This document shows, piece after piece, positions 3,924 through 31,978 of a stretch of 32,000 nucleotides of DNA (position 1 is its first letter; each line of letters begins with the position of its first letter). The notes beneath the pieces are model-generated. The model did no database searches. It saw only the letters and a list, made by a program, of their open reading frames with translations, and had not been told where the DNA came from. Made by a program: the position numbers and the translations under genes. Source of the DNA: Candidatus Saccharimonadota bacterium (GTDB lineage: Bacteria; Bacteroidota; Bacteroidia; Flavobacteriales; Blattabacteriaceae); NCBI RefSeq assembly GCF_000709555.1, contig NZ_CP006873.1, positions 210,001 through 242,000 of the forward strand, written 5' to 3'.

Positions 3924-4142
3924 TCAACGGTTAAAAAAACAGTTAAATGTCAGTATTAAAATAAATAATCCTATTGATAGGATCCAAGTAGTTTTTTCTA
4001 AAAAATCATTCGGTCGGCGGATCCCGAATATTTGTGTGCTCTTGGGGGTTAAAATTTGAGAACTTTTAGGATTTTGAATCAGAATTATGATCAACAGTAA
4101 AAAAGATATAATGCTAATAAGTATAGTTAAAAATATATACAC
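3924..4142 (-). CDS. secG: Preprotein translocase subunit SecG
   Basis: 72 aa with two TM segments. LIQNPKS...IFG...DFLEKTTW matches the flavobacterial SecG pattern. It has a GTG start and the conserved position upstream of groES. Confidence 0.75.
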   Translation of the reverse strand: MYIFLTILISIISFLLLIIILIQNPKSSQILTPKSTQIFGIRRPNDFLEKTTWILSIGLFILILTFNCFFNR

Positions 4143-4155
4143 GTCGTTAGTTTCA

Positions 4156-5340
4156 CTAAATTTCTATGCTGAATTGTTTTATTTTTCTATAGAGTGTTCG
4201 TTCAGATATCCCCAATTCCTTGGCCACCGTTTTTCTTTTACCCCTATTTCTCTTTAAAGCTTTGCGAATCAACTCTATTTCTTTTTCCTGCAAGGATAGA
4301 GATTTAGAAGCAGTCCGCGGTTCTTTGGATTCATCAATTTCTTCATAATTAGTTTCTAATGAATATTTTTTCCCTGCTGCAGATATTATTTCCTCTTGTG
4401 GATGATCCTGTTTAACACGATGAGCATATTCTGTAGGGCTTCGCATAAGTTTCCATGTGAGAGACTTTAAATCGGTTAAATCCTTACGCATATCATAAAG
4501 CACTTTGTAAAGTAAGTCTCTCTCATTACTCATTTGTCCCGACTCCTGAGAAAGCGTATGTTCAGGAAGATATTCTTTTATGCGTTCAATAGAAACCTCT
4601 CTATCAGACTCTAGAATAGATAGTTGTTCTACAACATTACGCAATTGACGAACATTTCCTGGCCACGGATAATTTTTTACATAACCCATAGCATCACTAC
4701 TTAACTTTATGGTAGGCATTCGGTATTTTTCTGCAAAATACTGTGAAAATTTTTTAAATAATAAACTAATATCTCCTCTACGAGCTCGTAAGGAAGGCAC
4801 ATTAATTTGAACAGTATTGAGTCTATAATAGAGATCTTCTCGGAATCTTCCTTTAGATATCGCCTCAGAAATATTAACATTAGTTGCAGCAATGATCCGT
4901 ACATTTGTTCTCTGTATTATAGAAGATCCTACCTTTAAAAATTCTCCGGATTCTAAAACTCGTAATAGCCGGACTTGCGTGGTAAGAGGTAATTCACCTA
5001 CTTCATCGAGAAATATGGTACCCTTATCGACTACTTCAAAATATCCTTTACGTACACAAGTAGCGCCGGTAAATGACCCCTTTTCATGACCGAAAAGTTC
5101 GCTCTCTATAGTTCCTTCAGGAAGAGCCCCACAATTTACAGCTATATAAGAATGATGCTTTCGCAAGGAAAGTTGATGAATGATCTTCGGAAGAAATTCC
5201 TTTCCTACACCACTTTCACCCATTACTAGGACAGAAATATCCGTGGGAGACACCTGAATTGCCTTTGCTAATGAGCGATTTAGCCCTGGGTCATTTCCGA
5301 TTATTTTGAACCGTTGTTTTATGCTCTGTATGTTTTCCAT
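4156..5340 (-). CDS. Sigma-54-dependent transcriptional activator (AAA+ enhancer-binding protein, Fis-type HTH, no receiver domain)
   Basis: Walker A GESGVGKE, ESELFGHEKGSFTGA (a GAFTGA-type sigma-54 contact loop), Walker B FLDEVGEL, the R-finger region and a C-terminal HTH (ELGISERTLYRKIK) are all present. Confidence 0.85.
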   Translation of the reverse strand: MENIQSIKQRFKIIGNDPGLNRSLAKAIQVSPTDISVLVMGESGVGKEFLPKIIHQLSLRKHHSYIAVNCGALPEGTIESELFGHEKGSFTGATCVRKGYFEVVDKGTIFLDEVGELPLTTQVRLLRVLESGEFLKVGSSIIQRTNVRIIAATNVNISEAISKGRFREDLYYRLNTVQINVPSLRARRGDISLLFKKFSQYFAEKYRMPTIKLSSDAMGYVKNYPWPGNVRQLRNVVEQLSILESDREVSIERIKEYLPEHTLSQESGQMSNERDLLYKVLYDMRKDLTDLKSLTWKLMRSPTEYAHRVKQDHPQEEIISAAGKKYSLETNYEEIDESKEPRTASKSLSLQEKEIELIRKALKRNRGKRKTVAKELGISERTLYRKIKQFSIEI

Positions 5341-10833: not shown

Positions 10834-13461
10834 TTAGTTAAAAATAAAACTCTCCACTAACTTTATCGCTTCATTTAACCCAGTAGAATTGTTACCCTTT
10901 GCCATAGCAAAAAACTTCTTACCTCCCCCTTTCCCTTTGATATATGGGGATAATTTTTGAAGAATTTTACAAGCATTTACCCCATGTTCTACAAGATCAT
11001 CAGAGACAGCTATGCAAAGCAGCACGTTATTTTTTTCAGAACGACCAACAACTGTTATTAGTTCTCTATGTTCCCTACGTAATTCTAATGCTATGGTTTT
11101 CATAGCAGTAGGTTCTAGATTTGTTTTTTCATAGATCAACATAAATCTATCATGTTTTTTAGCTTTTGTTAACCATTCTTTTTTTAATCTCTGTATTTCT
11201 CGTGACGTTACAATATTTATTTTTGTTCGTAACTTTTTTATTTCCTGTTGCAATTGTTGTATCGTTTTAATCGGATCGGAGGGATTATGTATTTGATAAA
11301 TAATTTTATTATAATCATCATATATCTTGTTTTGATATCCAATGGCAGTTTTTTCGGTAATTGCTTCTATACGTCGAATACCTGATCCTACAGAAGATTC
11401 TGATACAATTTTGAATAATCCTATTTCTCCAGTTTTCTTTACATGTGTTCCAAAACACAATTCTAACGAGGGGCCAAAACCAATACTTCGCACTTTATTT
11501 CCGTATTTTTCCCCAAATATTGCTACAGATCCTTCTGAAATTGCTGTTTCAAATGGAATGTTTCTACGTTCTCGTAAAGGATAATCTTTAAATATTATAT
11601 CCTGTACCAACATCTCAATCGACTGCAATTGTTCAATACGTATTTTTTTAGTATGAGAAAAGTCAAAACGCAATCTATCAGGCCCTACATACGATCCTTT
11701 CTGAGAAACATGATACCCTAGGACTTTTTTTAGAGCATAATGTAATAAATGAGTAGCACTATGGTTTTTTTCAATTTTCTTTCTACGATTTTTATCTACT
11801 GAAGCTTTGAAAGGTTTTTGGATATTATCAGGAAGTTTTTCTATCGTATGAAGAAAAAGACCATTCTCTTTATAAGTATTTATGATTCGTATTGTATCAA
11901 ATTCATTTTCCAAATAACCACTGTCTCCTACCTGGCCACCTTCTTCCGGTAAAAAAGGTGTTTTATTTAAAACAATTTGATAATAGGGACCTTTAATCGT
12001 TTGCACACGACGATATTGTTGTATATAAACATGAGCATATAAAATTTCATGACCGATAAATTTGTTTTCTTCTTCTACGAAAGAACTATTGAGAATAGTC
12101 CAATCATCATGCTGAATATTCCCATATTTCCGAGCACGTTCTTTTTGAAGAGACATTTCTTTTTTAAAGCCTATTTCATCTATTTTTAACAAATTGTCTG
12201 CAGCAAATAAACGTGAAATATATATAGGTAAACCGTAAGTATCATATAACTCAAATATTTTATCTCCACTAATCTGGTTTTGTCTTTTTTGTTTAGTTTC
12301 TTCAATAAGATTTCCCATTCTGTTTATGCCATGAGTTATGGTATTAAAAAAAGTGCTTTCTTCTGCTTGGACTTGTTCCTCTATCCACTTTTGTTGACGA
12401 ACAAGTTCAGGAAATATATCTCCCATTTCTTGTACAAGAACTTTCACAAGTTTATACAAAAAAGCTTGATTCTGATGTAAAAATTGATATCCATAACTTA
12501 TGGATCTTCTCAAAAGACGACGAATTACATATCCTGGACCAATATTAGAGGGATTTTGTCCGTCAGCAATAGCAAAAGAAATAGCTCTTATGTGATCTAC
12601 TATCACACGAATAGCTATATCTATTTGAGAATTTTTCCCATAATTAACATTGCTAACCGATTCTATTTTTTTAATTAGAGATCGAAAAAGATCAGTGTCA
12701 AAATTTGAAGATTTGTTTTGCAATACTCTGCAGAGTCTCTCAATACCTAGACCAGTATCTATATGACGATTCTCTAATTTTTCAAGACTTCCATCCGATT
12801 TCCTAAGAAATTCTATAAATACAAGATTCCATAGTTCTATGACATCCGGATGATTTTTATTAACAAGATCCTTACCGGAAACAGACTTTTTTTCTTTTGA
12901 ACTACGTAAATCTATATGAATTTCTGAACAAGGTCCACAAGGACCGATAGATCCCATTTCCCAGAAATTTTCTATTTTACCAAAAGAGATAATGCGATTT
13001 TTGTCAATAAATCTTGACCAAAGAAATCTAGACTCCTCATCAGGAGAAATATCATTTTTATCATCACCAGAAAATATTGTAACATATAAATTTTCACTAG
13101 GGATTTTGTAGACCTCAGTAAGAAGTTCCCAAGACCATTCTATAGTCTCTTTTTTATAATAATCTCCAAAAGACCAATTTCCAAGCATTTCGAACATAGT
13201 ATGATGATGAGTATCATGACCGACATCTTCTAAGTCATTATGTTTTCCTACTACTCGTAAGCATTTTTGCGTATTAGCTATTCTAGAATAATGAGGGATT
13301 CTTTGCGAGAGAAAATAATCTTTGAAAGGATTCATTCCCGCGTTTGTGAACATAAGGCTGGGATCATTTTTTATAACAATGGGAGATGAAGGAAAGATTT
13401 TATGATTTTTTTTTTGGAAAAAATTTAAAAAACTCTGTCGGATTTTACGAGAGGTAAACAT
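10834..13461 (-). CDS. alaS: Alanine--tRNA ligase
   Basis: Class II AlaRS motifs are present (FTNAGMNPFKDYF, HHTMFEMLGNWSFGDY, editing-domain HSATHLL). The start was set at the Met of MFTSRKIRQSFLNFF, because the upstream 23 ORF codons run through the tRNA-Ser gene. Confidence 0.95.
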   Translation of the reverse strand: MFTSRKIRQSFLNFFQKKNHKIFPSSPIVIKNDPSLMFTNAGMNPFKDYFLSQRIPHYSRIANTQKCLRVVGKHNDLEDVGHDTHHHTMFEMLGNWSFGDYYKKETIEWSWELLTEVYKIPSENLYVTIFSGDDKNDISPDEESRFLWSRFIDKNRIISFGKIENFWEMGSIGPCGPCSEIHIDLRSSKEKKSVSGKDLVNKNHPDVIELWNLVFIEFLRKSDGSLEKLENRHIDTGLGIERLCRVLQNKSSNFDTDLFRSLIKKIESVSNVNYGKNSQIDIAIRVIVDHIRAISFAIADGQNPSNIGPGYVIRRLLRRSISYGYQFLHQNQAFLYKLVKVLVQEMGDIFPELVRQQKWIEEQVQAEESTFFNTITHGINRMGNLIEETKQKRQNQISGDKIFELYDTYGLPIYISRLFAADNLLKIDEIGFKKEMSLQKERARKYGNIQHDDWTILNSSFVEEENKFIGHEILYAHVYIQQYRRVQTIKGPYYQIVLNKTPFLPEEGGQVGDSGYLENEFDTIRIINTYKENGLFLHTIEKLPDNIQKPFKASVDKNRRKKIEKNHSATHLLHYALKKVLGYHVSQKGSYVGPDRLRFDFSHTKKIRIEQLQSIEMLVQDIIFKDYPLRERRNIPFETAISEGSVAIFGEKYGNKVRSIGFGPSLELCFGTHVKKTGEIGLFKIVSESSVGSGIRRIEAITEKTAIGYQNKIYDDYNKIIYQIHNPSDPIKTIQQLQQEIKKLRTKINIVTSREIQRLKKEWLTKAKKHDRFMLIYEKTNLEPTAMKTIALELRREHRELITVVGRSEKNNVLLCIAVSDDLVEHGVNACKILQKLSPYIKGKGGGKKFFAMAKGNNSTGLNEAIKLVESFIFN

Positions 13462-13484
13462 CACATAAGTTTTATATAGGATTG

Positions 13485-13571
13485 CGGAGAGAAAGGGATT
13501 CGAACCCTTGACACTGTATTCAGTGAACATACTTTCCAGGAATGTGCCTTAGACCACTCGGCCATCTCTCC
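13485..13571 (-). tRNA. tRNA-Ser (anticodon GGA), type II with long variable arm
   Basis: The reverse complement folds as follows. Acceptor is GGAGAGA/TCTCTCC. Anticodon stem is CATTC/GTATG (one U-U mismatch) with loop CTGGAAA. Variable arm is CACTG-AATA-CAGTG. T arm is AAGGG-TTCGAAT-CCCTT. Discriminator is G. Confidence 0.9.
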
Positions 13572-14556
13572 AAGAATTTTCCAATATGCTGATCCCTAAG
13601 GCTTTTCTAACACGTTGTAATGTGATCGTAGCTATTTGTGAAGCACGTTCAGCTCCCAGAGAAAGAATTTTATTTAAAAGTACTTTTTTTTGTATAAATT
13701 CATTGAATTTTTCTCGTTCGTGTTTAAACCTATGTAATAAAAGTTCATAAAGAGCTTGTTTAGCATTCCTATAACCATAACCTCCTGATAGATAATTTTT
13801 TTCCATTTCAATAATTTGGTATTCAGAAGCAAAAAATTTGTAAAAAGTATAAATTAAATCTGTTTCTGGATTTTTAGACTCCTCTAAGGAAAGATTATTG
13901 GTTCGAATATTCATGATTTGCTGGTATAGTTCTTTTTCTTTAGCAAAAAGATTTATAATATTTCCTTTAGATTTGCTCATTTTGTTTCCGTCAATACCTG
14001 GTATATACATCATATTTTTATTAATCATAGGTTCTGGGACAACAAAGACTTCTCCTATTTTACTATTAAAACGCTTGGCTATATCACGCGTAATCTCCAT
14101 ATGTTGGAGTTGATCTTTCCCCACTAGTATTTTTTCAGCATCGTAGAGCAATATGTCCGCTGCCATAAGCATAGGATAGGTAAATAAGCCAGTGTTAATC
14201 TCTTTAATATAATTTTTTTTTTCCTTAAATGAATGTGCTAATTTAAGTCTATGATAAGGGTAAAAACAACTTAAATACCAAGATAATTCAGTTGTCTGAG
14301 GTACATCGGATTGACGATAAAAAATCGCTCTATCAGCATCAAGCCCGCAAGCAAGCCAAGTAGCCAAAACTTGATAGGTATATTCTTTTAATAACTCAGC
14401 ATTTTTAACAACAGTTAACGAATGTAAATCTGCAATAAATAAAAAGGAAGTATAATCAGAGCTATTTGCCAATTGAATAGCTGGAAAAATAACACTCAAT
14501 AGATTGCCTAAATGAGGAATACCAGTGCTTTGGATCCCCGTTAATATTCTGGACAT
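13549..14556 (-). CDS. trpS: Tryptophan--tRNA ligase
   Basis: This is a class I enzyme, with a HIGH-like PHLGN motif and KMSKS. It is 335 aa. The last 23 nt, including the stop, lie inside the tRNA-Ser gene. Confidence 0.93.
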   Translation of the reverse strand: MSRILTGIQSTGIPHLGNLLSVIFPAIQLANSSDYTSFLFIADLHSLTVVKNAELLKEYTYQVLATWLACGLDADRAIFYRQSDVPQTTELSWYLSCFYPYHRLKLAHSFKEKKNYIKEINTGLFTYPMLMAADILLYDAEKILVGKDQLQHMEITRDIAKRFNSKIGEVFVVPEPMINKNMMYIPGIDGNKMSKSKGNIINLFAKEKELYQQIMNIRTNNLSLEESKNPETDLIYTFYKFFASEYQIIEMEKNYLSGGYGYRNAKQALYELLLHRFKHEREKFNEFIQKKVLLNKILSLGAERASQIATITLQRVRKALGISILENSWRDGRVV

Positions 14557-15329: not shown

Positions 15330-16298
15330 GTCCTTTAATATATTTCTCTTCATGAGAGACTCTTTCAAGCACTTTAGTAAATTTTGTTACATTATTTGAG
15401 GATATTTGTTATTTAAATAAATATTCTTCCTCAAATTCGTGAACCTTATTAAGAGAGTCAACAGATTTCTGGGACCGAGATATAGTATAGCTATTTTATA
15501 AGGATTATTTATCCGTTGTTTTAGAATTTCCACGTTATGTTTACCTTTATTTCTAATATCCATAGTAACAGGATCAAGATTAGAAACAAACTTTTAAAAG
15601 GCTTCCTTCCTTCCTTCCTTCCAGATCACGGAATTGAGCCTGATCAATTTTAAGAGTTCCAGCTTGCTACTACACGGGATCCAGAAATCCCTTCATTAAT
15701 TGCTGCCCCCAGAATTAAACAAATCAATTTATAAAAATATTTGGCCTAATAGAGATAATATTAGTTGGAATATAAGCGTCTACCTCTTGGGTATCGCTGT
15801 CCCCCCTTGAGACATCGTTAAGATTACGGGCTACTTCATCATGCAGAACGTTACAATAAGCGTAGACAGGATTAGCTTCTCGTCCTGGAGTCTTAAAAGC
15901 AAAGAAATTTCACGGTAAGATCATCGGCCTCACGAAAATATTCTACTACGACCGTCTACATTTTTAATGTGTTGCCACTGGCAACATAAAGACAAAAAAC
16001 TGGTGATCATAACATTCCTTCTGATTAAGAATCGTGGTTTGACCTGTCTGTCGTTGGCCCACGTCTAATAGGAATCATAGCATCAATAGCTATAAGACCT
16101 GTTTGTAGAGAGGCTTACGATAGATTAGGAGGTAAGCTAGGTAAGCTATATGTACGCTACGTTGTATCCTTCTAGGATAACCAGGGTGAGTACAATACCT
16201 TTAAGACCAGTATGAAATTCTACTAATTGTCTACTCCATCACCTATTTTAAGTCCCACACCAAATTCTTTTTTCAAGATGGCTAAGATTTTAGATCTA
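15330..16298 (-). pseudogene. atpA: ATP synthase F1 alpha subunit (atpA) pseudogene, heavily deleted
   Basis: Fragments lie in several frames: ILAILKKEF..GVGLKIGDGV, QLVEFHTGLKGIVLTL, LQTGLIAIDAMIPIRRG, a collapsed Walker A QRQTGQTT (16033-16056; GKT changed to GQT with flanking codons missing), AGTLKIDQAQFRDLE, and FVSNLDPVT...VEILKQ. There are multiple stops. The span is about 0.97 kb, against roughly 1.5 kb expected for an intact atpA. Confidence 0.8.
15602..15622. repeat. Tetranucleotide microsatellite (TTCC)5 (minus strand GGAA)
   Basis: Read directly from the sequence. It sits exactly at the ancestral ...RDLE|AF... junction of atpA and shifts the frame. Confidence 0.9.
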
Positions 16299-16475
16299 TC
16301 ATCTAATTGTAAGAGATTCTAGTAGCTTATAAGCTCTTTACTAAGACTCATATCCGCTCAGAGCACCAATAATAGTAGGATCTACTTTCTTCAAGAGAAA
16401 GTCTTTTGTATTTCCATAACTTCATCCAATATTTAAAGGTATAGCCGTGATGATAGTGGCTTCTCCCCTAAAAAA
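16299..16475 (-). pseudogene. atpH: ATP synthase F1 delta subunit (atpH) remnant, C-terminal third only
   Basis: Translation gives ATIITAIPLNIG*SYGNTKDFLLKKVDPTIIGALSGYES**, which resembles the delta C-terminus (..VDPSIIGG..). The N-terminal two thirds are missing. Confidence 0.5.
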
Positions 16476-16492
16476 TTCATGAGTAATAGATT

Positions 16493-16888
16493 TTAATAAA
16501 GAAATTGTCGTCTTGTTTTTGAAGAATCAAGAATATTTCTCTTTTTTTGTTTTGTTTTGTTTTTTTTTTTTAAACGGTAAAGAAGGCATTTTAAGAAAGG
16601 AATAAAAATACCGATTTTTTTTTTTGCTTCTTCACGGATTTTATCACTCATTATCCGAGCTTCTTTTAATAAAAGATCTCGTTCAATACGACTTTCTTTA
16701 ATCCAATTATCTTTTTCAAGATGAAAAAGACGAATTTCTGAACGTACTTTTTGAGCAGCTTCTAGAGAATTATGCAAATGAGTATCACGTTGTTTAATCA
16801 GATTTAATATGGGTTTCCACGCAAATTTTGTAAGAATGAAAAAGAGATGCCAAAAAATAAAACCTATGGAAGGCGTTACTAAATCCAC
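16493..16888 (-). pseudogene. atpF: ATP synthase Fo subunit b (atpF) pseudogene
   Basis: The first ~90 aa are b-like (TPSIGFIFW...KFAWKPILNLIKQRD...LLKEARIMSDKIREEAKK) but the TM helix is shortened. After a 13-nt homopolymer (about 16612-16624) the reading frame encodes low-complexity K/N-rich junk. No frame continues the b coiled coil. Confidence 0.7.
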
Positions 16889-16930
16889 GATATAATTAAA
16901 TAAATTCTCGGTAACCCTATTTTAATATAC

Positions 16931-17663: not shown

Positions 17664-19118
17664 CTAGAAATTTGGGTTTAAACAAGTAGAACCATCCTCA
17701 TTATCAATCAATGAATATCCAAGATGAAAGAGCTCATTCCGTATCCTATCTGATATATCCCATTTTTTTTCTTTTCGGACTAATTTTCGTATCTCCAATA
17801 GGAGATCTATCAACTTGTGATTAACGGTTAAGTCTGAAGGAATATTAACTCCTAAGACCTCTGTAAGAAAATTTCTCATATTTCTATGTAATAATTGGAT
17901 ATCATAAATATCTAAGAATTCTTTTCCTTTGACAAAAGATTCAATTAAATTACCTGCTTCAAAGAGATGGGAAATTAATTTTGGACTATTAAAATCATCA
18001 TTCATAGCATCATAACACCTCTGGATCCAATCCTTCACATCAAAAGTAGAAAGACCCCGATTTTTTTCTGCTATTAACCTTTTTAAGGTGGTAAAATATT
18101 TCATCAGACGATGAAATCCCTTCTCCGCAGAGAGAAGAGACTGGATTGAAAAATCAAATACACTACGATAATGAGATTGAAGCATAAAAAATCGAATAAG
18201 ATTCGCAGAGAAAGATTTTTCTCCTGTGAAAAGTTCTGAAGGAAGAATTAGATGTCCGCTTGACTTACTCATTTTTTTATCTTTTATAGTCAGGAGATTA
18301 ACATGAATCCAGTATCGAACTGGATTTTTCTCGGAAATGCCCAGAGCTTGGGCTAATTCACATTCATGATGTGGAAACTTTAAATCTATTCCACCACCAT
18401 GTATATCAAAAACATTCCCTAAATATTTTGTGCTCATAGCGGTACATTCTAAGTGCCATCCCGGGAAACCTTTACCCCAAGGAGAATTCCAACTCATAAG
18501 ATGCTTAGGCGATGCTTTTTTCCATAGGGCGAAATCTAGAGTATATCGTTTTTCATTTTGCGCTTTTAAATTACGTGTATTGGCTATGAGATCTTCTATA
18601 TTTCTATGGCTCAAAATCCCGTAATCATAACGTTGGATATAGGATTTTAAATCAAAATAAACAGATCCATTTACTTCATAAGCTAGTCCTTTGTCAATAA
18701 GTTTGACAATCAGTTCTATTTGTTCAAGAATATGACCTGTAGCAATAGGCTCTATATTAGGAGGTAATGTATTTAATACAGAAAGAATATGATGAAAATC
18801 AAGGGTATATTTTTGCGTAATTTCCATAGGTTCTAGACGTTCTAAACGAGCTCTTTTAGAAATTTTATCTTCACCTTCATCTTCAAGATGTCCCACATCA
18901 GTGATATTACGCACGTAACGTACTTTATACCCCAGATATTTAAAATAACGAACTATCAAGTCAAAAAAAATAAATGTACGACAATTTCCTAAATGGATTT
19001 CTCTATAAACAGTGGGGCCGCAAGTATATATTCCAACATGTCCTTGAATAATAGGGACAAAAGTTTCTTTTTTTCCACTAAGAGTGTTGTATATTTTTAT
19101 TTTTTGCTTCATTTTCAT
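17664..19118 (-). CDS. cysS: Cysteine--tRNA ligase
   Basis: 484 aa. Motifs are [15 protein letters not shown] (HIGH-type), GWHLEC and KMSKS. Confidence 0.95.
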
Positions 19119-24327: not shown

Positions 24328-26442
24328 TTACTTCTTCGGCAGAGATTTATCCTCGTATACTTCAATATAGTCTCCTATTTTGAGAGCATTATAGTTCTTT
24401 ATTTGCAATCCGCATTCATAACCTTTAGAGACTTCTTTTACATCTTCTTTAAATCGTTTAAGAGAAGCTAATTCGCCATGAAATATGACAATACCGTCTC
24501 GGATTAATTTGATTTTAGCAGGACGAAATATTTTCCCGTTAATAACCATACATCCAGCAACGGTTCCTACTATTTTAGGAATATTAAAGATATTACGAAT
24601 CTCAGCAGTACCACATATTTGTTCTTGAAGTTTAGGAGAATACATTCCTTCTATAACGTTAGAAATTTCCCTAATTACATCATAAATAATTGAATATGTA
24701 CGTATTTCAATCTGTTCTCTTTCTGCAATTTTTCTGGCATTAGGAGTTGTTCTAACATTGAATCCTATAATGATAGAATGAGAGGCACTGGCTAGTAAAA
24801 CATCTGATTCAGTAATTTGTCCTACACCTTTGTGAATAATATTTACCAATACTTCCTTTTTAGACAGATTTTTTAGTGCATTCATAATAGCTTCTACGGA
24901 ACCGTCTACATCTCCCTTAAGAATAATTTTTATTTCCTTCCCTGCTACGTTAACGTTAGTTAACGTAACATGCTTATGTATGCGAAGATTGTGCTCTCTT
25001 TGTAATTGTTGTTTTTTTAAAGCCAGTTGTTTAGCTTCCTTATCATTACTGAACACTTTAAATTTATCACCAGCTGTAGGACCACCGTTAAGTCCCAATA
25101 TAGATACAGGTTTTGAAGGACCGGCATTTTTAATGGAATTACCTCTTTCATCGAAAAGGGCCTTAACTTTTCCGTGGAAGATCCCTGCTAATATGTAGTC
25201 TCCAAGTTTGATAGTCCCAGATTGAACAAGGATAGTAGTCATATATCCACGACCTTTATCGAGAGTAGATTCAATGATTGTCCCAGAAGCCATTTTATTT
25301 GGATTAGCTTTCAATCCTAAAAGTTCAGCTTCTAGCCAAACCTTATCGAGTAATTGTTCAATACCTTCCCCTGTTTTTGCAGAAATTTCCTGAGACTGAT
25401 ATTGACCTCCCCATTCTTCTACCAAGATATTTATGTTAGCTAGCTGTTCACGTATTTTATCAGGATTTGCCGTAGGTTTATCTATTTTATTTAAAGCAAA
25501 TATTAGAGGAACTCCAGCTACTTTTGCGTGATTTATTGCTTCTTTGGTTTGCGGCATAACTTCCTCATCCGATGCTATAACAATAATAACAATATCAGTT
25601 ATCTTAGTGCCTCGGGCGCGCATTGACGTAAATGCCTCATGACCAGGAGTATCAAGAAAAGTAAGACATCGGCCGTTTTTTAATTCTACACTATAAGCAC
25701 CTATATGCTGTGTAATTCCTCCAGATTCACAAGATTTAGTATTTCTAACATAATCTAAAAATGACGTTTTTCCGTGGTCTACGTGACCCATAACTGTGAT
25801 AATGGGTGCACGACTATGCAGACTTTCTTTTGGATCTTCCTCTTCCTTCATAACTTTATCTATATCTTCTCCGACAAAATCTATACTGTATCCGAATTCA
25901 TCAGCTACTAGGGGAAGTATTTCTGCGTCTAAACGTTGATTCATTGTTACCATAACACCTAAAGACATACAAGTAGTAATTAATTGTGTGCTAGAAACAT
26001 TCATCAGAGAAGCTAATTCATTTACAGTAATAAACTCAACTATTTGAAGTACTTTTTTAGGTTTTGAATCAAGCGTTTTATTATCTTCTTTTGGTGGTTG
26101 TTTTTTTTTCCTATACTTTAAAAGTGTTGATTTCTTATTTTTTACAGGGACTTTTGAAAAAGTTTCCTTAATTTTTTCTACACGTTGTCTCACATTTTCT
26201 ATTCCACTACGCAAAGTACGTTGCTTTTTTTTATCGGATTTATTTTTTTCAAATTGAGACAGATCTATTTGATCTCCTGTAAATACAGGACCTGGAAGTT
26301 TTTTATATTGTGTTTTTATAGAAATGTCTGTTTTTGATTTTGAACCGTCTGTTTTTGATTTTGATTTTGAACCGTCTGTTTTTGATTTTGAACCGTCTGT
26401 TTTTGAAACTGGTATCAGAGAATCACTCTTTATGTGAACCAT
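24328..26442 (-). CDS. infB: Translation initiation factor IF-2, main ORF lacking the N-terminal IF2_N domain
   Basis: G-domain motifs GHVDHGKT, DTPGH and NKID are present, as are the C-terminal domains. The repetitive Lys/Ser-rich N-terminal linker contains TDGSKSK repeats. Confidence 0.93.
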   Translation of the reverse strand: MVHIKSDSLIPVSKTDGSKSKTDGSKSKSKTDGSKSKTDISIKTQYKKLPGPVFTGDQIDLSQFEKNKSDKKKQRTLRSGIENVRQRVEKIKETFSKVPVKNKKSTLLKYRKKKQPPKEDNKTLDSKPKKVLQIVEFITVNELASLMNVSSTQLITTCMSLGVMVTMNQRLDAEILPLVADEFGYSIDFVGEDIDKVMKEEEDPKESLHSRAPIITVMGHVDHGKTSFLDYVRNTKSCESGGITQHIGAYSVELKNGRCLTFLDTPGHEAFTSMRARGTKITDIVIIVIASDEEVMPQTKEAINHAKVAGVPLIFALNKIDKPTANPDKIREQLANINILVEEWGGQYQSQEISAKTGEGIEQLLDKVWLEAELLGLKANPNKMASGTIIESTLDKGRGYMTTILVQSGTIKLGDYILAGIFHGKVKALFDERGNSIKNAGPSKPVSILGLNGGPTAGDKFKVFSNDKEAKQLALKKQQLQREHNLRIHKHVTLTNVNVAGKEIKIILKGDVDGSVEAIMNALKNLSKKEVLVNIIHKGVGQITESDVLLASASHSIIIGFNVRTTPNARKIAEREQIEIRTYSIIYDVIREISNVIEGMYSPKLQEQICGTAEIRNIFNIPKIVGTVAGCMVINGKIFRPAKIKLIRDGIVIFHGELASLKRFKEDVKEVSKGYECGLQIKNYNALKIGDYIEVYEDKSLPKK
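26326..26406. repeat. Tandem 21-nt repeat (GTCTGTTTTTGATTTTGAACC) x about 3.5, one unit carrying an extra GATTTT
   Basis: Read directly. Units lie at 26326-26346, 26347-26373 (27 nt) and 26374-26394, with a partial unit at 26395-26406. The repeat is in frame and encodes (TDGSKSK)n in IF-2. Confidence 0.9.
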
Positions 26443-26602
26443 CTTTCACTTTTTTGTCTTCTTTAAACTCATTTACTAGTAGTTGATAGGGGGTGGGATT
26501 TATATTAACTTCTATATTTTTTGTTCTGAGAAAGTGTACCACTCTTTGTAAGGATACATTTAATTCTTTCAATATTACTCTTAATCTGATATTATCAGTC
26601 AT
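26423..26602 (-). CDS. Detached IF-2 N-terminal domain fragment (59 codons), in a different frame from the infB main ORF
   Basis: Hand translation gives MTDNIRLRVILKELNVSLQRVVHFLRTKNIEVNINPTPYQLLVNEFKEDKKVKDGSHKE*. The IRL..V.KELN.....V..L pattern is the IF2_N motif. Its ATG overlaps the nusA stop as ATGA. Its stop (26423-26425) lies 17 nt beyond the infB ATG (26442). Confidence 0.65.
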   Translation of the reverse strand: MTDNIRLRVILKELNVSLQRVVHFLRTKNIEVNINPTPYQLLVNEFKEDKKVKDGSHKE

Positions 26603-27831
26603 TTTTTTAATTCTTCTCTTAATATTCGTAAGACATCCAAAATCATTTGTTTCTCTAATTTAGTTTTCTTTATTATATCTTCCAGATCGGAATTTAGGAT
26701 GGATCTCGCTGTAGAAAGGCCTGTACTTTTAAAGTTATCAATTATCCAAGGTTCTATTTCGTCACTAAATTCAGTGAGTTCCACATCCTCCTCAGACATA
26801 AAATCTCTAATAATAACAATTTTATACCCAGTGAGTTTACTTACTAAACGAAGATTTTGTCCATTACGTCCTACGGTTTTAGATACATGATCAGGATGTA
26901 ACGAGACCTTGGCTATTTTATTTTTTTCATCTATCTCAATTTTAGAGATTTTCGCCGGGCTTAGAGCACGAATAATATACAACTGACTATTGTCAGTATA
27001 ATTTATAATATCTATCTTTTCAGATATTAATTCTTTAACAATAGAATGGATACGCATCCCTCTGACTCCAACACAGGCCCCAACTGGGTCAATCCTATCA
27101 TCATAAGATGATACAGCGACTTTGGCTTTTTCTCCAGGAATCCGGACAATGTCTTTTATCGAAATCAATCCTTCAAAAACTTCAGGAATTTCCTGCTCAA
27201 AAAGTTTTTTTAGAAATGCTGTATCACTTCGTGATAGAATAATTATTGGCCTGTTACCTTCTAAGAGAACATTTTTAATTAGAGCACGTATACGACCACT
27301 CTTTCTACTCAAATCGTTAGCCATCTGTTCTTTTTTTGGAAGGATCATTTCATTTTTGTTATCATCACGTATGATGAGATTTTGATTATCACATGTATAG
27401 TGAATCTCTCCGACGATAAGTTCCCCGATTTTTTTGTGAAATTTTTTATAAATAACTGTGTTATAGTATTCTTTACTTTGAGTAAAGATATTTTTTTTTA
27501 AAGAAAGAATAGCCCTTCGACCTAAATCTTTAAGTTCTACTTTTTCAGATACATATTCTCCTATTTCAAAATCAGGCTCTATTTTTTTTGCTTCAGAAAG
27601 TTCAATTTGTTCATTCTCTTCCTCAACAGATCCGTCTTCCACGATTGTACGATTGCGCCATATTTCAAGATCACCTTTATCAGGATTGACTATAATGTCG
27701 AAATTCTTTGAAGATCCAGATTTTTGACGTAAAATATTTCTAATAGCTTTCTCAAGTATAGCTCTAAGAGTAGAGCTATCTATCTTTTTTTCCTCCTGAA
27801 AATTTATTAAGGCCAGATTAATATTATCCAT
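26599..27831 (-). CDS. nusA: Transcription termination/antitermination factor NusA
   Basis: 410 aa with an N-terminal domain, S1 and KH1/KH2 (DPVGACVG..G.RI, VGRNGQN.RL). It sits upstream of infB as usual. Confidence 0.95.
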   Translation of the reverse strand: MDNINLALINFQEEKKIDSSTLRAILEKAIRNILRQKSGSSKNFDIIVNPDKGDLEIWRNRTIVEDGSVEEENEQIELSEAKKIEPDFEIGEYVSEKVELKDLGRRAILSLKKNIFTQSKEYYNTVIYKKFHKKIGELIVGEIHYTCDNQNLIIRDDNKNEMILPKKEQMANDLSRKSGRIRALIKNVLLEGNRPIIILSRSDTAFLKKLFEQEIPEVFEGLISIKDIVRIPGEKAKVAVSSYDDRIDPVGACVGVRGMRIHSIVKELISEKIDIINYTDNSQLYIIRALSPAKISKIEIDEKNKIAKVSLHPDHVSKTVGRNGQNLRLVSKLTGYKIVIIRDFMSEEDVELTEFSDEIEPWIIDNFKSTGLSTARSILNSDLEDIIKKTKLEKQMILDVLRILREELKK

Positions 27832-27897
27832 AGGAGATCACTTTTTATTTTGAAACATGTAATATATGTTTTTTTCACCAAAATGACAAATCCACGT

Positions 27898-28110
27898 TTA
27901 TCTTAACCATCGTGAGTCCGCTCTGGAGCAAGTTATTCTGTAGTGGGTAGGCAGGAAAGAGGCCGTAGAAAACGTGATTGACAACCTGGATAAAATTTTT
28001 ATTATATTGGCTAAGAAAATCGCACGAAACATTTCAATACGATTTAGAATCGGCCCTACCGATATAAGCCCTATCCCTATATATATATAATATATTAAAG
28101 ATTCCATCAA
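27898..28110 (-). pseudogene. Possible truncated or degenerate rimP remnant (very tentative)
   Basis: The position immediately upstream of nusA is normally held by rimP. The 70-codon ORF shows only a faint resemblance (GPILNRIEMFRAI.. versus G..I.DC..VSRAI; LSITFSTAS versus LEVSSPG) and is about half the usual length. Confidence 0.2.
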
Positions 28111-28112
28111 TT

Positions 28113-28202
28113 ATGCCTAACGGAAAAAAAAGAAAAAAGAACAAGATTGCTACACATCAAAGAAAAAAAAAAAGCAGAAAAAATCGACATAAGAAGAAAT
28201 AA
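28113..28202 (+). CDS. 29-aa highly basic peptide (MPNGKKRKKNKIATHQRKKKSRKNRHKKK); resembles the small Lys/Arg-rich peptide conserved in Bacteroidota
   Basis: The ATG..TAA ORF was read by hand and is below the ORF-track size cutoff. The M-P-x-G-K-K-R-K...A-T-H-x-R-K-K...K-N-R-H-K-K-K pattern matches my recollection of a conserved ~30-aa family, annotated in some genomes as AURKAIP1/COX24-domain or THX-like. It contains an A11 run (28163-28173). Confidence 0.45.
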   Translation: MPNGKKRKKNKIATHQRKKKSRKNRHKKK

Positions 28203-28282
28203 TATACTCATTGTTCAGTGAAAGAGTGAATATAACCAATATATAGTGTTGGACTTTGTACTTAAGGATCTTAAAAGACTAA

Positions 28283-29744
28283 ATGAATAAAGAATTAATT
28301 ATACAAACAAATGAGAAAGAGGTAATTGTTGTTATTTTGGAAAACGTAAAATTATCGGAAATACATCGTTACAGCAAAAAAAAAATTTGTTAATTGGGGA
28401 TATCCACATTGGAGAAATCCAAGAAATAGTCCCGGGACTAAATGCTGCTTTTGTGAATATTGGATCTGGTCAACATGCTTTTCTTCATTATCAAGATATT
28501 GGTCCGAAATTAAAATCATTTATAAAATTATTATCATGTCATTATCCAGAAAATGTAGGTGAATTTATTCAAAATGGACAAATAATATTGGTCCAGATTA
28601 CTAAAGAATCTCTTTCAAAAAAAGGTCCTAAACTTACATCAGAAATTTACCTCTCAGGTCGTTATCTTATATTAATTCCTTTCGCAGAACAAATTTTAAT
28701 TTCAAAAAAAATCAAAGACAGAAAAGAAAGAGAACGATTAATTTCTCTTATACAGAGAATAAAACCAAAAAATTTTGGCCTAATTATTCGGACTATTGCG
28801 ATAAATAAAAGAATTCCAACTATTGAAAATGATTTCCTATCTATAACCAAGAAGTGGAAGAATCTCCTAAAATTTTTAACAAAAAAAAATTGACAGCAAG
28901 AATACTACGGGAAAGGGATAGAGCATTATTCATTCTAAAAGATCTTTTTTATGAGGATTTCACATCCATTATTTGTGATGATGATAATCTCTGCGATGAG
29001 ATGGATACCTATATCTCTAGCATTTATCCTAGTAAAACTGGGATTATTAAATATTATCGTGATAAGGAAATCCCTCTTTTTGATAAATTGGGTATTGAAA
29101 GTCAAATGAAAATCTCTTTAGGCAAGCATGTTACCCTAGGTCAAGGAGCTTATCTAATTATAGAACATACTGAAGCATTGCACGTCATTGACGTGAATAG
29201 TGGAATAAACCAGCATAAACAAATAAAATATAAAAATGTCGCTCTTGATGTAAATATTTTAGCAGCTACAGAAATTTCTAGACAATTAAGGTTAAGGGAT
29301 ATGGGAGGTCTTATCGTGGTAGATTTTATAGATCTGGTGGAATATCATCATCGTCAAAAATTATATGAACACCTAAAGATAGCAATGAAAAATGACAAAG
29401 CAAAATCTAAAATTTTACCCCCTAGCAAATTTGGTCTAATACAACTTACAAGACAAAGAGTACGTACTGAATTAAATATAGAAACTTCTGAAGAAAATCC
29501 TTCTAAAAATATAGAAGCGCCGGTTTCATATATATATATATCTAGAATAGAGTCTGTTTTCGAATTTCTTGTAAAAGAAAACATTAAAAAAATTACTTTG
29601 CATACTCATCCATTTCTAGCAGCTTATCTCCAACATGGATGGCCATCCAAACAGCAAAAATGGTTTCTACGATATAAAAAATGGATCAAAATTATTCAAA
29701 GAGATTCATTCAAATATCTTGAGTATCAAATTTTTTATAAATAA
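28283..29744 (+). pseudogene. rng: Ribonuclease G/E family (rng/cafA) split into three frames by two poly(A) tracts; possibly still expressed via slippage
   Basis: Segment 1 (28283 onward) reads MNKELIIQTNEKEV...HRYSKKK. The A10 tract lies at 28376-28385. Segment 2 (28387-28893) contains the S1 domain (GDIHIGEIQEIVPGLNAAFVNIG). The A9 tract lies at 28881-28889. Segment 3 (to 29744) contains the catalytic motifs HVIDVNSG and GGLIVVDFIDL. Adding one A at each tract gives one continuous ~487-aa RNase G. Confidence 0.85.
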
Positions 29745-29756
29745 AATTTTATCTTC

Positions 29757-29787
29757 TGATAAGAACTAATCTTATCATTTTTTTTTT
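29757..29787 (+). terminator. Candidate intrinsic terminator downstream of rng
   Basis: The stem is TGATAAG (29757-29763) paired with CTTATCA (29771-29777), with a 7-nt loop, followed by T10 (29778-29787). The stem is AT-rich and therefore weak. Confidence 0.5.
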
Positions 29788-29870
29788 GCGGGTGTGGTGG
29801 AATTGGTAGACACGCTAGACTTAGGATCTAGTACTGAAAAAGTGTGGGGGTTCGAGTCCCTTCACCCGCA
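29788..29870 (+). tRNA. tRNA-Leu (anticodon UAG), type II
   Basis: Acceptor is GCGGGTG/CACCCGC. Anticodon stem is CTAGA/TCTAG with loop CTTAGGA. There is a long variable arm. T arm is GGGGG-TTCGAGT-CCCTT. Discriminator is A. Confidence 0.92.
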
Positions 29871-30009
29871 CGACAATCATTTTGGAAAAAATGTAATATG
29901 TAATATGTAATATTTGATATTCATAGCACTGATACAATCTGTCTCTATTTTCAGAGTCGTTCTATGAAAAAATTGACAAAAACTGTGCTTGGGTAGTAAT
30001 CTTTTCTTT

Positions 30010-30858
30010 ATGGAATGTCTTAAAATAGCTTTACAAAAATCCGGTAGACTGTATACAGATTCGATAGAACTACTGAAAGATTGTGGTATAGAAATGAATT
30101 TAGGAAAACAGCTTAATACAAAGTCTCTTAATTTTCCAATGGAGATTTTATTTTTACGAGATGATGATATTCCTAAATACATAGAAGATGGAGTAGCTGA
30201 TGTAGGTATTGTAGGGAAAAATCTTATTTTAGAAAAAAAGAAAAATATTAATATTATAGAATATCTAGGTTTTGGCCGTTGTCGTCTATCTATTGCTGTA
30301 CCTGAAAATTTTCATTATACAAGATTAGACGATCTTGACGAAAAACGAATTGCCACAAGTCATCCTACGCTTTTAAGCGCTTTTTTAAAAAAAAGCCAGA
30401 TCAAAGCGCACATTCATCATATAAGCGGATCGGTAGAAATTGCACCGAATATAGGAATATCTGATGCTGTTTGTGATTTAGTTAGTAGCGGGGAAACACT
30501 GTTTATCAACAATCTTAAAGAGATAGAAACTATCCTGGAATCGGAAGCTGTATTAACATCCTATCCACACATGAAATCGTCTAAAAAATCTATTGCGGAA
30601 ATATTATATTGTAGAATACAGGCAGTTAAAAGAGCTAGAACCAATAAGTATCTGATACTCAATGCTACTAATGATAATTTAGAAGAAATATTATCTTGTC
30701 TCTCTGGAAGTCCTACAGTACTTCCCTTAAATAATACTAAATGGATTGCAGTGCACGCTATAATAGAAGAAAGATATCTATGGAACAAGATAGAAAAACT
30801 TAAAAGATTGGGTGCAAAAGACTTATTGGTTCTCCCCATTAAAAAAATGATGATTTAA
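30010..30858 (+). CDS. hisG: ATP phosphoribosyltransferase, long form
   Basis: From the internal Met the sequence reads MECLKIALQKSGRLYTDSIELLKDCGI, and the DLVSSGETL motif is present. About 283 aa, including the C-terminal regulatory domain. Confidence 0.92.
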   Translation: MECLKIALQKSGRLYTDSIELLKDCGIEMNLGKQLNTKSLNFPMEILFLRDDDIPKYIEDGVADVGIVGKNLILEKKKNINIIEYLGFGRCRLSIAVPENFHYTRLDDLDEKRIATSHPTLLSAFLKKSQIKAHIHHISGSVEIAPNIGISDAVCDLVSSGETLFINNLKEIETILESEAVLTSYPHMKSSKKSIAEILYCRIQAVKRARTNKYLILNATNDNLEEILSCLSGSPTVLPLNNTKWIAVHAIIEERYLWNKIEKLKRLGAKDLLVLPIKKMMI

Positions 30859-30892
30859 AAAAAAATAGGAGGTCCTCAAAATATAAAAACTA

Positions 30893-31978
30893 ATGAAAAA
30901 AAAGTTTCTTTTCATTGAAAGAGAGGGGCCTATAATTATAGAAAATCCTACCCCAGTTATTTTCTATCCAGGAGTATTTTCATTTCTTTCACGTATATTC
31001 TCTGAACTCGATTATGAACTAGTCATAGGGACTAATCAAGAGGGACTAGGGACAGAAAACTTTCCAGAAGAAAAATTTTGGCCAAAACAAGAATATATCA
31101 TGAAAACTTTTGAAGGTGAGGGTATTTATTTTTCTTCTGTACATATTTATCGGACTCTGGCAAAAGAAAACGCATATACCAGAAAATCTTGGACTGATAT
31201 GCTTCTAACTAATTATGATATTTCAAATTCTTTTTTTATAGGGGATATAATTACATATGTTCTCTTAGCTCAAAATCTTGGTTGTAAAGCGATATGGATG
31301 AATAAGGAAAATTGTAAGACGAGTCAAGAACTTAACCCTTTGATCTCTTTTGAAACCGTTTTTTGGAACCAAATTTATGAGTATCTTAAATTCGGACTTC
31401 GATGTAACACGAATAGACGTATCACTAATGAAACCGACATCAAAATTTCCCTGCAACTTGATGGTACTGGAAAAACTAATATCCATACTGGGCTCGGTTT
31501 TTTAAATCATATGCTTGAACAGATCGGTTGTCAGGGAAAATTTGACCTAACTATTAAGGTGCGTGGAGATCTACATATTGATGAACACCATACTATTGAA
31601 GATATTGGTCTCGCTCTTGGCGCTACTTTTACTAAAGCTTTAGGAGATAAGAAAGGAATTGTTAGATATGGATATTCTATATTACCTATGGATGATTCAC
31701 TAGCGAAAGTAGCGATGGATCTGGGAGGTCGAAGTCATTTAGTATGGAAGGTAAATTTTGGCATAGAAAAAATAGGTGATGTCCCTACAGAAATGTTTTC
31801 ACATTTTTTTAAATCTTTTTCTAATACAGCACACTGTAATATTCACATCCAAGCTGAAGGAAAGAACGAACATCATAAAATAGAAGCTATATTTAAAGCC
31901 TTTGCTAGAACACTTCATATGATTATCCGCAGAAATATAAATTACTATGAATTACCTACAACTAAAGGAATGCTATGA
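30893..31978 (+). CDS. hisB: Bifunctional HisB: imidazoleglycerol-phosphate dehydratase (C-domain intact) fused to a histidinol-phosphatase HAD domain whose catalytic motifs are degenerate
   Basis: The C-domain carries the IGPD motifs HIDEHHTIEDIGLALG and GKNEHHKIEAIFKAFARTL. The N-domain aligns to E. coli HisB-N, but FIDRDGT is FIEREGP and GDRATD is GDIITY. The CPH...CDCRKP zinc site is IYRT...AYTRKS. Confidence 0.93.
   Translation: MKKKFLFIEREGPIIIENPTPVIFYPGVFSFLSRIFSELDYELVIGTNQEGLGTENFPEEKFWPKQEYIMKTFEGEGIYFSSVHIYRTLAKENAYTRKSWTDMLLTNYDISNSFFIGDIITYVLLAQNLGCKAIWMNKENCKTSQELNPLISFETVFWNQIYEYLKFGLRCNTNRRITNETDIKISLQLDGTGKTNIHTGLGFLNHMLEQIGCQGKFDLTIKVRGDLHIDEHHTIEDIGLALGATFTKALGDKKGIVRYGYSILPMDDSLAKVAMDLGGRSHLVWKVNFGIEKIGDVPTEMFSHFFKSFSNTAHCNIHIQAEGKNEHHKIEAIFKAFARTLHMIIRRNINYYELPTTKGML

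Follow-up and report, generated by a model that had tools for sequence, protein, structure and literature searches.

Organization of the rng locus

The 32-kb stretch of DNA analysed here (the window, G+C content 33%) carries, at 28283-29744 on the + strand, a gene for a ribonuclease of the Rne/Rng family, rng, which is read in three frames. The frame changes exactly at two poly(A) tracts, A10 at 28376-28385 (site 1) and A9 at 28881-28889 (site 2). An original prediction had described the gene in these terms, proposing that one extra A at each tract repairs it and that it is either rescued by transcriptional slippage or very recently inactivated; direct reading of the DNA bears out the description. 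Rather than one uninterrupted reading frame there are three open stretches. The first, of 36 amino acids (28283-28393), ends in HRYSKKKIC at a TAA stop (28391-28393) two codons past site 1. The second (28387-28893) ends at a TGA stop (28891-28893), its frame being open already before the A10 tract in the reading ...NLLIGDIHIGEIQ...KFLTKKN. The third (28854-29744) runs through KKKLTARIL to EYQIFYK and a stop at 29742-29744. Addition of one A to each tract gives a product of 487 amino acids containing ...HRYSKKKNLLIGDIHIGEIQ... and ...FLTKKKLTARILRERDRAL..., and after these two single-base corrections all 487 codons are open, as they are likewise in 12 related loci.

Segment 1 (28283-28375, frame 0) consists of the ATG and 31 further codons (MNKELIIQ...HRYS), including the peptide EVIVVILENVK, and supplies the N-terminal strand of the Rne/Rng catalytic domain. 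The A10 tract which follows is one base short of frame and can be brought back into frame by an additional A in the transcript or by the ribosome slipping -1 on A-AAA-AAA. Segment 2 (28384-28880), whose frame lies one base back from frame 0, encodes a putative S1 domain and the 5' sensor (NLLIGDIH...KNLLKFLT), with the motifs AAFVNIG at 28444-28464 and GLIIRTIA at 28777-28800; the peptide NLLIGDIHIGEIQEIVPGLNAAFVNIGSGQHAFLHYQDIGPK, in the same frame, lies upstream of any start codon. At site 2 the A9 tract follows AAC and is two bases too long by comparison with in-frame relatives, needing one more A or the loss of two bases. Segment 3 (28890-29744), in the third frame, encodes the DNase-I-like catalytic core and the C-terminal domain (LTARIL...EYQIFYK); as predicted, HVIDVNSG occurs at 29181-29204 and VVDFIDL at 29316-29336, and DLFYEDFTSIICDDDNLCDEMDTYISSIYPSK is an example of a peptide from this segment. 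A runs of at least nine bases number only five on the window's + strand, and the two frame switches fall exactly on two of them, which is therefore not a matter of chance.

That one extra A per site restores a homologous protein is confirmed by profile searches. The corrected product matches the Rne/Rng model TIGR00757 at 338.5 bits (cut-off 325.95) in a single alignment over residues 15-406 which spans both junctions, and PF10150 at 282.6 bits (cut-off 25.5), while structures of E. coli RNase E align with residues 2-409. The S1 domain model PF00575 scores 20.2 bits, slightly below its cut-off of 22, and the same region aligns with the S1 part of RNase E. The RNase G equivalog NF008689 gives 255.1 bits against a cut-off of 594; the label 'RNase G' is accordingly used for convenience, to denote the one short Rne/Rng paralogue that Flavobacteriales possess. 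IDVNSG and VDFID align with IDINSA and IDFID of E. coli RNase E, and GLIIRT with GLIVRT. The aligned residues are presumably D303/N305 and D346, the acidic metal-binding positions, and R169/T170, the arginine and threonine of the 5' sensor of the E. coli enzyme. In this alignment the tracts fall at about residue 35, between the N-terminal strand and the S1 domain, and at about residue 205, between the 5' sensor and the next subdomain; both positions are taken here to be linkers between RNase E subdomains, the positions coming from the alignment and the subdomain borders being assumed.

The host and its relatives

The best protein matches to the rng product are from Candidatus Walczuchella, at 91% identity, followed by intact homologues from other Bacteroidota symbionts and free-living Flavobacteriales at 46-65% identity. 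The window is part of the genome of a Candidatus Walczuchella, a flavobacterial symbiont of giant scale insects. Twelve related Walczuchella loci were compared with it, none of which is the window itself: L001, from the symbiont of Icerya purchasi (OZ034981); L010, L013, L019 and L020, from the 2025 giant-scale study (CP170565, CP170567, CP170563 and CP170566, respectively); and L011, L012 and L014-L018, seven contigs assembled from other public runs. A thirteenth genome, ICPU, contributed the N-terminus of the protein only. The loci of the relatives stem from several independently generated datasets, with different accession series and separate sequencing runs, and the genomes compared differ by up to ~7% in DNA. 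The window groups with Drosicha-like loci, with which it has an insertion at the 3' end of rng in common; the published tree places Drosicha together with Llaveia, which makes the symbiont genome of Llaveia axin axin (LLAX) the foremost candidate for the source of the window.

An old and invariant frameshift at site 1

The sequence CAGC-A10-TTT is identical in the window and in the DNA of all 12 related loci, and the same frame-0 stop follows two codons later. The N-terminus of the ICPU protein, MIRNTSLQQKKNF, annotated from an odd upstream start, implies A10 as well. Since A10 is found in every genome compared, the shift at site 1 is neither a sequencing error nor recent, which disposes, for this site, both of the suggestion of a very recent inactivation and of the possibility, raised in the same place, that the genomic tract is really A11. 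Its distribution indicates that the shift predates the split of the two Walczuchella subclades. The length of the tract is as conserved as that of A/T runs inside intact genes; an intergenic T10 run is missing from the relatives. No protein reading through site 1, as an A11 version would, was found among the assembled proteins of a 15-billion collection or of the cluster from public runs.

Could translation bypass site 1 by means of an internal start? This possibility was considered and rejected. Upstream of the tract no genome compared has an ATG, GTG or TTG in the post-shift frame. A TTG codon directly after the tract occurs only in the window and L011, the codon being TTT in 10 of the 12 related loci. 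In the 23 codons preceding the first conserved GTG, five of the six variable codons differ synonymously in the shifted frame, so that the stretch which an internal start would leave untranslated itself evolves synonymously.

Coding-type evolution of rng across the genus

Pairwise ratios of nonsynonymous to synonymous substitution rates (dN/dS, NG86 method) are 0.20-0.54 for rng, comparable to those of its intact neighbours nusA (0.24-0.48) and hisB (0.19-0.47), while hisG has lower values (0.09-0.27). When changes are reconstructed by parsimony in the corrected frames, they are distributed over codon positions 1, 2 and 3 as 68/25/101. A random substitution creates a stop with a probability of ~0.055, and segments 2 and 3 together have undergone ~186 changes; under neutrality ~10 stops would be expected over the tree and none is seen (P about 4e-5). 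The interior indels of rng, of 12, 6 and 6/12 nt, are all multiples of three, compared with only ~30% of the intergenic indels between the same genomes. Segment 1 has accumulated ~8 changes in 93 nt over nine genomes, mostly synonymous or conservative in frame 0, and the intergenic DNA just upstream of the gene is highly divergent. In segment 2 the dN/dS ratio (omega) is ~0.1-0.3 in all lineages; in those with a shift at site 2, nonsynonymous and synonymous changes (N:S) number 29:29, with omega ~0.2-0.3.

These patterns indicate that rng has evolved as a protein-coding gene in its three corrected frames since the shift at site 1 arose. As coding evolution is evident on both sides of site 1, some fraction of expression must cross the shift, and the case for function of rng at the level of the genus, resting on these substitution patterns, is strong. 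A dN/dS near 1, which the original prediction had held to speak against rescue, is not seen gene-wide, the window's own branch being uninformative for segment 3.

The gene cysS served as a contrast to rng. In the window it is an intact reading frame of 484 codons (17664-19118, - strand; TIGR00435, 415 bits). The corresponding region of the Icerya purchasi symbiont (L001) has suffered numerous deletions, many of a length not divisible by three, and cysS is a lineage-specific pseudogene or loss in that genome.

Three length states at site 2

Site 2 occurs in three states. In the Icerya/Crypticerya clade (L001, L010, L019, L020) ten bases lie between T5 and TTG/TTT, interrupted by a C (AAAACAAAAA or AAAAACAAAA; A4CA5 or A5CA4), and the gene is in frame. 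L011 and the Drosicha-like loci (L013-L018) have A11, one base too many, and the window has AAC followed by A9, two bases too many. Both out-of-frame states belong to one Walczuchella subclade and the in-frame state to the other. The shift at site 2 is thus neither specific to the window nor very recent, because relatives carry another out-of-frame state at the same place, and a very recent inactivation is no better an account of this site than of the first. Site 2 is the younger tract, its length varying between lineages, and the comparison of tract lengths with relatives which had been called for accordingly contrasts a fixed A10 with a variable second site. The window's extra C changes what is required at site 2 from -1 or +2 to +1. 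It is tempting to consider that this C was selected; the idea is speculation, since A-to-C is also the dominant type of substitution among these genomes.

Slippage as the most probable explanation

The explanation preferred here, with a probability of roughly 0.65, is that the rng gene of Walczuchella contains two poly(A) frameshifts in lysine-coding tracts which are crossed by slippage, RNA polymerase being the likeliest route. By analogy with Buchnera and Blochmannia, the polymerase would slip backwards on A10 at site 1 and add one A. A -1 slip of the ribosome on A-AAA-AAA would be an alternative at this site, yielding the identical protein, SKKKNLL. In the window the same +1 correction would be required at site 2. 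Full-length enzyme would need both corrections and would be made in low yield, which fits the weaker constraint on the catalytic half where the second shift is present. For long poly(A) runs in Buchnera and Blochmannia, a corrected fraction of 12-50% of the transcripts has been reported (Tamas et al. 2008, cited in PMC5009743). At A/T runs single-base insertions predominate and increase exponentially with run length (PMC5574713), and in Blochmannia conserved frameshifts are found without gene decay (PMC3017870). No terminator-like sites were detected in 27800-30000. The proposal of rescue is thus supported for site 1, where A10 is genus-wide and purifying selection is seen in the corrected frames; for site 2 it is plausible and falls short of proof.

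Several observations weigh against this reading. Among the genomes compared, the state AAC+A9 is found in the window only. The relatives with A11 need -1 or +2 at site 2, which are rarer products of slippage at homopolymers (PMC5574713). The 3' end of rng is altered in the window by an insertion of ~16 nt (29724-29741, the start being approximate and placed by eye in the alignment), so that EYQIFYK replaces EYQILYSDKN as the C-terminus; a variant of the insertion also occurs in Drosicha-like loci (ending in EYQIFYKNNKI), and the insertion is absent in L001, L010 and L011. From sequence, moreover, we infer the slippage itself, the choice of slipping polymer and an active enzyme from the window's copy, and RNA polymerase and ribosome are not separable on such evidence.

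The evolution of segment 3 belongs with these points. At strict lineage-specific sites, N:S in segment 3 is 5:15 on the stem of the in-frame clade, 7:2 in the window, 23:8 in L011 and 3:2 on the Drosicha-like stem, or 33:12 for the shifted lineages pooled against 5:15 for the in-frame clade (Fisher p 0.0004); the control genes show no such lineage effect. Full parsimony over nine genomes gives 55:25 against 31:28 (p 0.08). Relaxed constraint on segment 3 in the lineages with a shift at site 2 is therefore suggestive only, because the fuller count weakened p from 0.0004 to 0.08. On the window's branch N:S is 12:4, with omega 0.6-0.8, which fits neutrality or constraint alike. That segment 3 has acquired no stop in the shifted lineages (~2.9 expected, 0 seen, P about 0.05) is no more than borderline surprising.

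The same observations form the basis of a different interpretation, namely that rng is an early-stage pseudogene in the lineage of the window: site 1 would have been tolerated, the second shift would have ended the catalytic half, and segment 3 would now be drifting, not yet having acquired a stop. This is possible but rather doubtful. Besides the altered 3' end and the relaxation of segment 3 relative to the in-frame clade and the control genes, it is favoured by the fact that only ~0.5 stops are expected on the window's branch, their lack being uninformative, and by the heavy ongoing pseudogenization of Walczuchella genomes, each of which carries 27-84 pseudogenes (PMC12188211). On the other hand, L011 and the Drosicha-like lineages share the shift at site 2 as A11, yet their segment 3 lies below the neutral N:S (55:25, omega 0.43-0.60, compared with ~0.2-0.3 in the in-frame clade; p 0.03 to 0.0007), has no stops and has acquired in-frame indels only. 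Of 94 columns of segment 3 invariant in 20 free-living homologues the window keeps 85 and deviates at nine, the same number as the in-frame L001. The strong constraint on segment 2 in shifted lineages is hard to square with a dead enzyme, and a genuine pseudogene nearby, cysS in L001, has many frameshifting deletions. Taken on its own, the window's copy of rng can be given a moderate case for function from these comparisons.

An unlikely alternative is that the shifts are decoded by the ribosome through a -1 slip on A-AAA-AAA, or that site 1 is kept by selection as a recoding device. The slippery heptamer A AAA AAA lies in the incoming frame inside both tracts and a -1 slip yields exactly the homologous protein; PMC5009743 discusses frameshifting by ribosomes on A runs as well as the 'correction' of indels during translation in endosymbionts and organelles. 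A stimulatory RNA structure was sought in the 80 nt after each tract, which fold no better than shuffled sequences (z +0.77 and +0.07), and the same inseparability of ribosomal from transcriptional slippage counts against a specifically ribosomal route. Unprogrammed slipping of the ribosome on A runs needs no downstream structure. Similarly tentative and improbable is the idea that A10 at site 1, instead of being a lesion which is tolerated, has been selected for recoding and acts as an attenuator, limiting RNase G to a few tens of percent of the transcript level. It arises because all Walczuchella keep the exact A10 though an in-frame A11 is one common replication slip away, while in these genomes site 2 occurs in three states. 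The invariance of A10 is explicable, however, by selection against A9 or A12, A11 not having arisen or become fixed in lineages which are few and diverge slowly (~5% divergence in total). If true, the idea would imply a fixed attenuator in a genome with almost no regulators, the states of site 2 representing a second, evolving dial.

It is far less credible that rng is a split gene whose three stretches are translated separately, through re-initiation at TTG codons by the stops, and combine to form an active enzyme. The window has one TTG at 28387, just before the frame-0 stop, and another at 28890 which overlaps the TGA at 28891-28893, and both breaks fall at subdomain linkers in the RNase E alignment. 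Re-initiation at these overlapping codons was nevertheless rejected, as the codons are not conserved: the TTG after site 1 is replaced in most relatives, as noted above, and nine of the 12 related loci have TTT as the codon following site 2. In the A11 lineages the open stretches overlap by ~30 nt instead of abutting, segment 1 would be a peptide of 36 amino acids, and no split Rne/Rng was met in the searches of the present analysis. Weakest of all is the notion of an ordinary intact gene with true tracts of A11 and A10, obscured by homopolymer errors in sequencing or assembly: the probable source genome was built from Illumina and 454 reads (PMC3971599), of which the latter miscount homopolymers, and the window's state at site 2 is unique, but the A10 of site 1 recurs in 12 other loci from several independent assemblies, which refutes it there, the coverage of that genome is 1571x and mostly Illumina (PMC3971599), and site 2 is out of frame in five or more independent relatives, so that no error needs to be invoked.

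Relation to known cases of slippage and recoding

The slippage reading places rng beside the slippage-rescued genes of Buchnera and Blochmannia (Tamas et al. 2008; Wernegreen et al. 2010; PMC3017870), with which a number of parallels can be drawn. The hosts are obligate AT-rich insect endosymbionts with tiny genomes; the lesion is a 1-nt indel in a lysine-coding A run of 9-11 nt in a gene which is otherwise intact; the shift is conserved between diverged lineages with dN/dS <1; and neighbouring genes commonly hold in-frame A runs of at least nine bases. The differences are that Buchnera and Blochmannia are Gammaproteobacteria whereas the host of rng belongs to the Bacteroidota, that rng has two tracts, the second in three length states across lineages, and that transcript heterogeneity has been shown experimentally in the former while the rng case is known from genomic sequence alone. 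As far as the accounts in PMC5009743 and PMC3017870 were available, rng is not among the cases named there (cell-wall genes, a histidine gene, dnaX, dnaG, pth and others).

Closer at hand are carB, trpC and mnmE of Walczuchella itself, for which the same mechanism has been proposed: in PMC12188211, fragmented genes were screened for tracts >8 bp and these three emerged as candidates for slippage rescue. A general caveat that frameshifts in homopolymer tracts may conserve function appears in PMC3971599 (2014). The main texts of PMC12188211 and PMC3971599 do not name rng, nor do they contain the genus-wide identity of A10 or the selection tests; in the main text of PMC12188211 the word 'ribonuclease' occurs only in a list of genes which several genomes (more than one) have lost or carry as pseudogenes. 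A full-text literature search returned no paper combining ribonuclease G, frameshift, endosymbiont and slippage. The rng gene is thus a further case of a known class of slippage-rescued genes, in a different bacterial phylum, and the present analysis contributes the conservation of site 1 across the genus, the selection tests and the three-state second site.

Programmed -1 frameshifting or realignment, as in dnaX and IS elements (PMC5009743), offers a second comparison. A slippery A-rich heptamer and a shifted frame which is the functional continuation are common to both, but rng has neither a downstream stimulatory structure nor any sign of two used products, and its shift has more the look of a lesion which is tolerated than of a device designed for expression. 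A third comparison is with the intact Rne/Rng proteins of other Bacteroidota symbionts and free-living Flavobacteriales, which have the same domain order and C-terminal region and are 52-65% identical over the full length. Unlike the gene in the window, these are uninterrupted; they have no lysine run at site 1 (e.g. ...HRQSNDQNFLVGD...) and read ...KKKSPPAR... or similar at site 2. Several symbiont genomes of about 320-345 kb (P0009, P0012, P0013) have kept an Rne/Rng gene.

The annotation of rng is inconsistent: the gene may be entered in fragments, be labelled a pseudogene, or appear as a protein which lacks its N-terminus and has an unusual start. If rng is functional, Walczuchella retains its only endoribonuclease of the Rne/Rng type, and estimates of 'accelerated pseudogenization' for the genus should leave it out. 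Conserved poly(A) frameshifts are extended from gammaproteobacterial symbionts to one of the Bacteroidota. The genus also offers a natural comparison, between one conserved shift alone and the same shift with a second one in two phases, which could gauge how strongly selection persists where correct transcripts are in the minority.

Neighbouring genes and mutation spectrum

Variable sites among the Walczuchella genomes (window 26599-31978 with L001, L010, L011 and L013-L015) are mostly A:T<->C:G transversions. Taken together, A<>C and G<>T make up 87% of the biallelic variable sites in rng, 73% in hisG, 93% in hisB and 83% in nusA, transitions accounting for ~0-13%. The spectrum resembles that of 8-oxoguanine damage in cells without mutT, mutM and mutY. 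It is unmentioned in the main text of the 2025 comparative paper (PMC12188211).

Just upstream of rng lies the gene for ribosomal protein bS22 (28113-28202, + strand; 29 codons, MPNGKKRKKNKIATHQRKKKSRKNRHKKK), recognised by a match to the Flavobacterium johnsoniae ribosome chain 7jil_5 (E 9e-8). It contains in-frame A8 and A11 runs, the latter being longer than any other A run on the window's + strand, and the lengths of both are conserved in L001 and L013. Downstream, a T10 run (29778-29787, + strand) between the rng stop and tRNA-Leu(TAG) (29788-29871) is absent in L001 and L013.

The original prediction had set rng against shattered atp genes elsewhere in the window, a statement which was checked in part and to that extent holds. 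An AtpF match covers only the first ~91 residues of the reading frame at 16493-16888 (- strand); it ends at an A11 run (T11 on the + strand, 16615-16625), which is followed by an A12 run (16560-16571), and beyond the fragment (16200-16900, - strand) the sequence has decayed and holds traces of other atp genes. In its N-terminal portion infB (24328-26442, - strand, especially 26180-26440; 5156-7673 in L013) varies between genomes through many indels, not all of which are multiples of three. The called product varies from 617 to 798 amino acids, and no infB is called in L013. This variation fits the pseudogenization of IF-2 reported for some Walczuchella genomes (PMC12188211).

Two genes of the window, a full-length alaS (10834-13530, - strand; TIGR00344, 817 bits) and secG (3924-4142, - strand; TIGR00810, 48 bits), are at odds with the 2014 Walczuchella genome paper, in which alanine tRNA synthetase and secG are listed as missing (PMC3971599). 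Either the window belongs to another genome or the original annotation missed both. A tRNA-Ser(GGA) gene (13484-13571, - strand) overlaps the 5' end of the listed alaS reading frame and the 3' end of trpS (13549-14556); the real start of alaS is therefore further downstream. Finally, a reading frame of 394 amino acids (4156-5340, - strand) matches the AAA+ core of sigma-54-dependent activators of the NtrC/PrdR type (E about 1e-93, below the equivalog cut-offs), an unexpected regulator to meet in a genome of ~300 kb.

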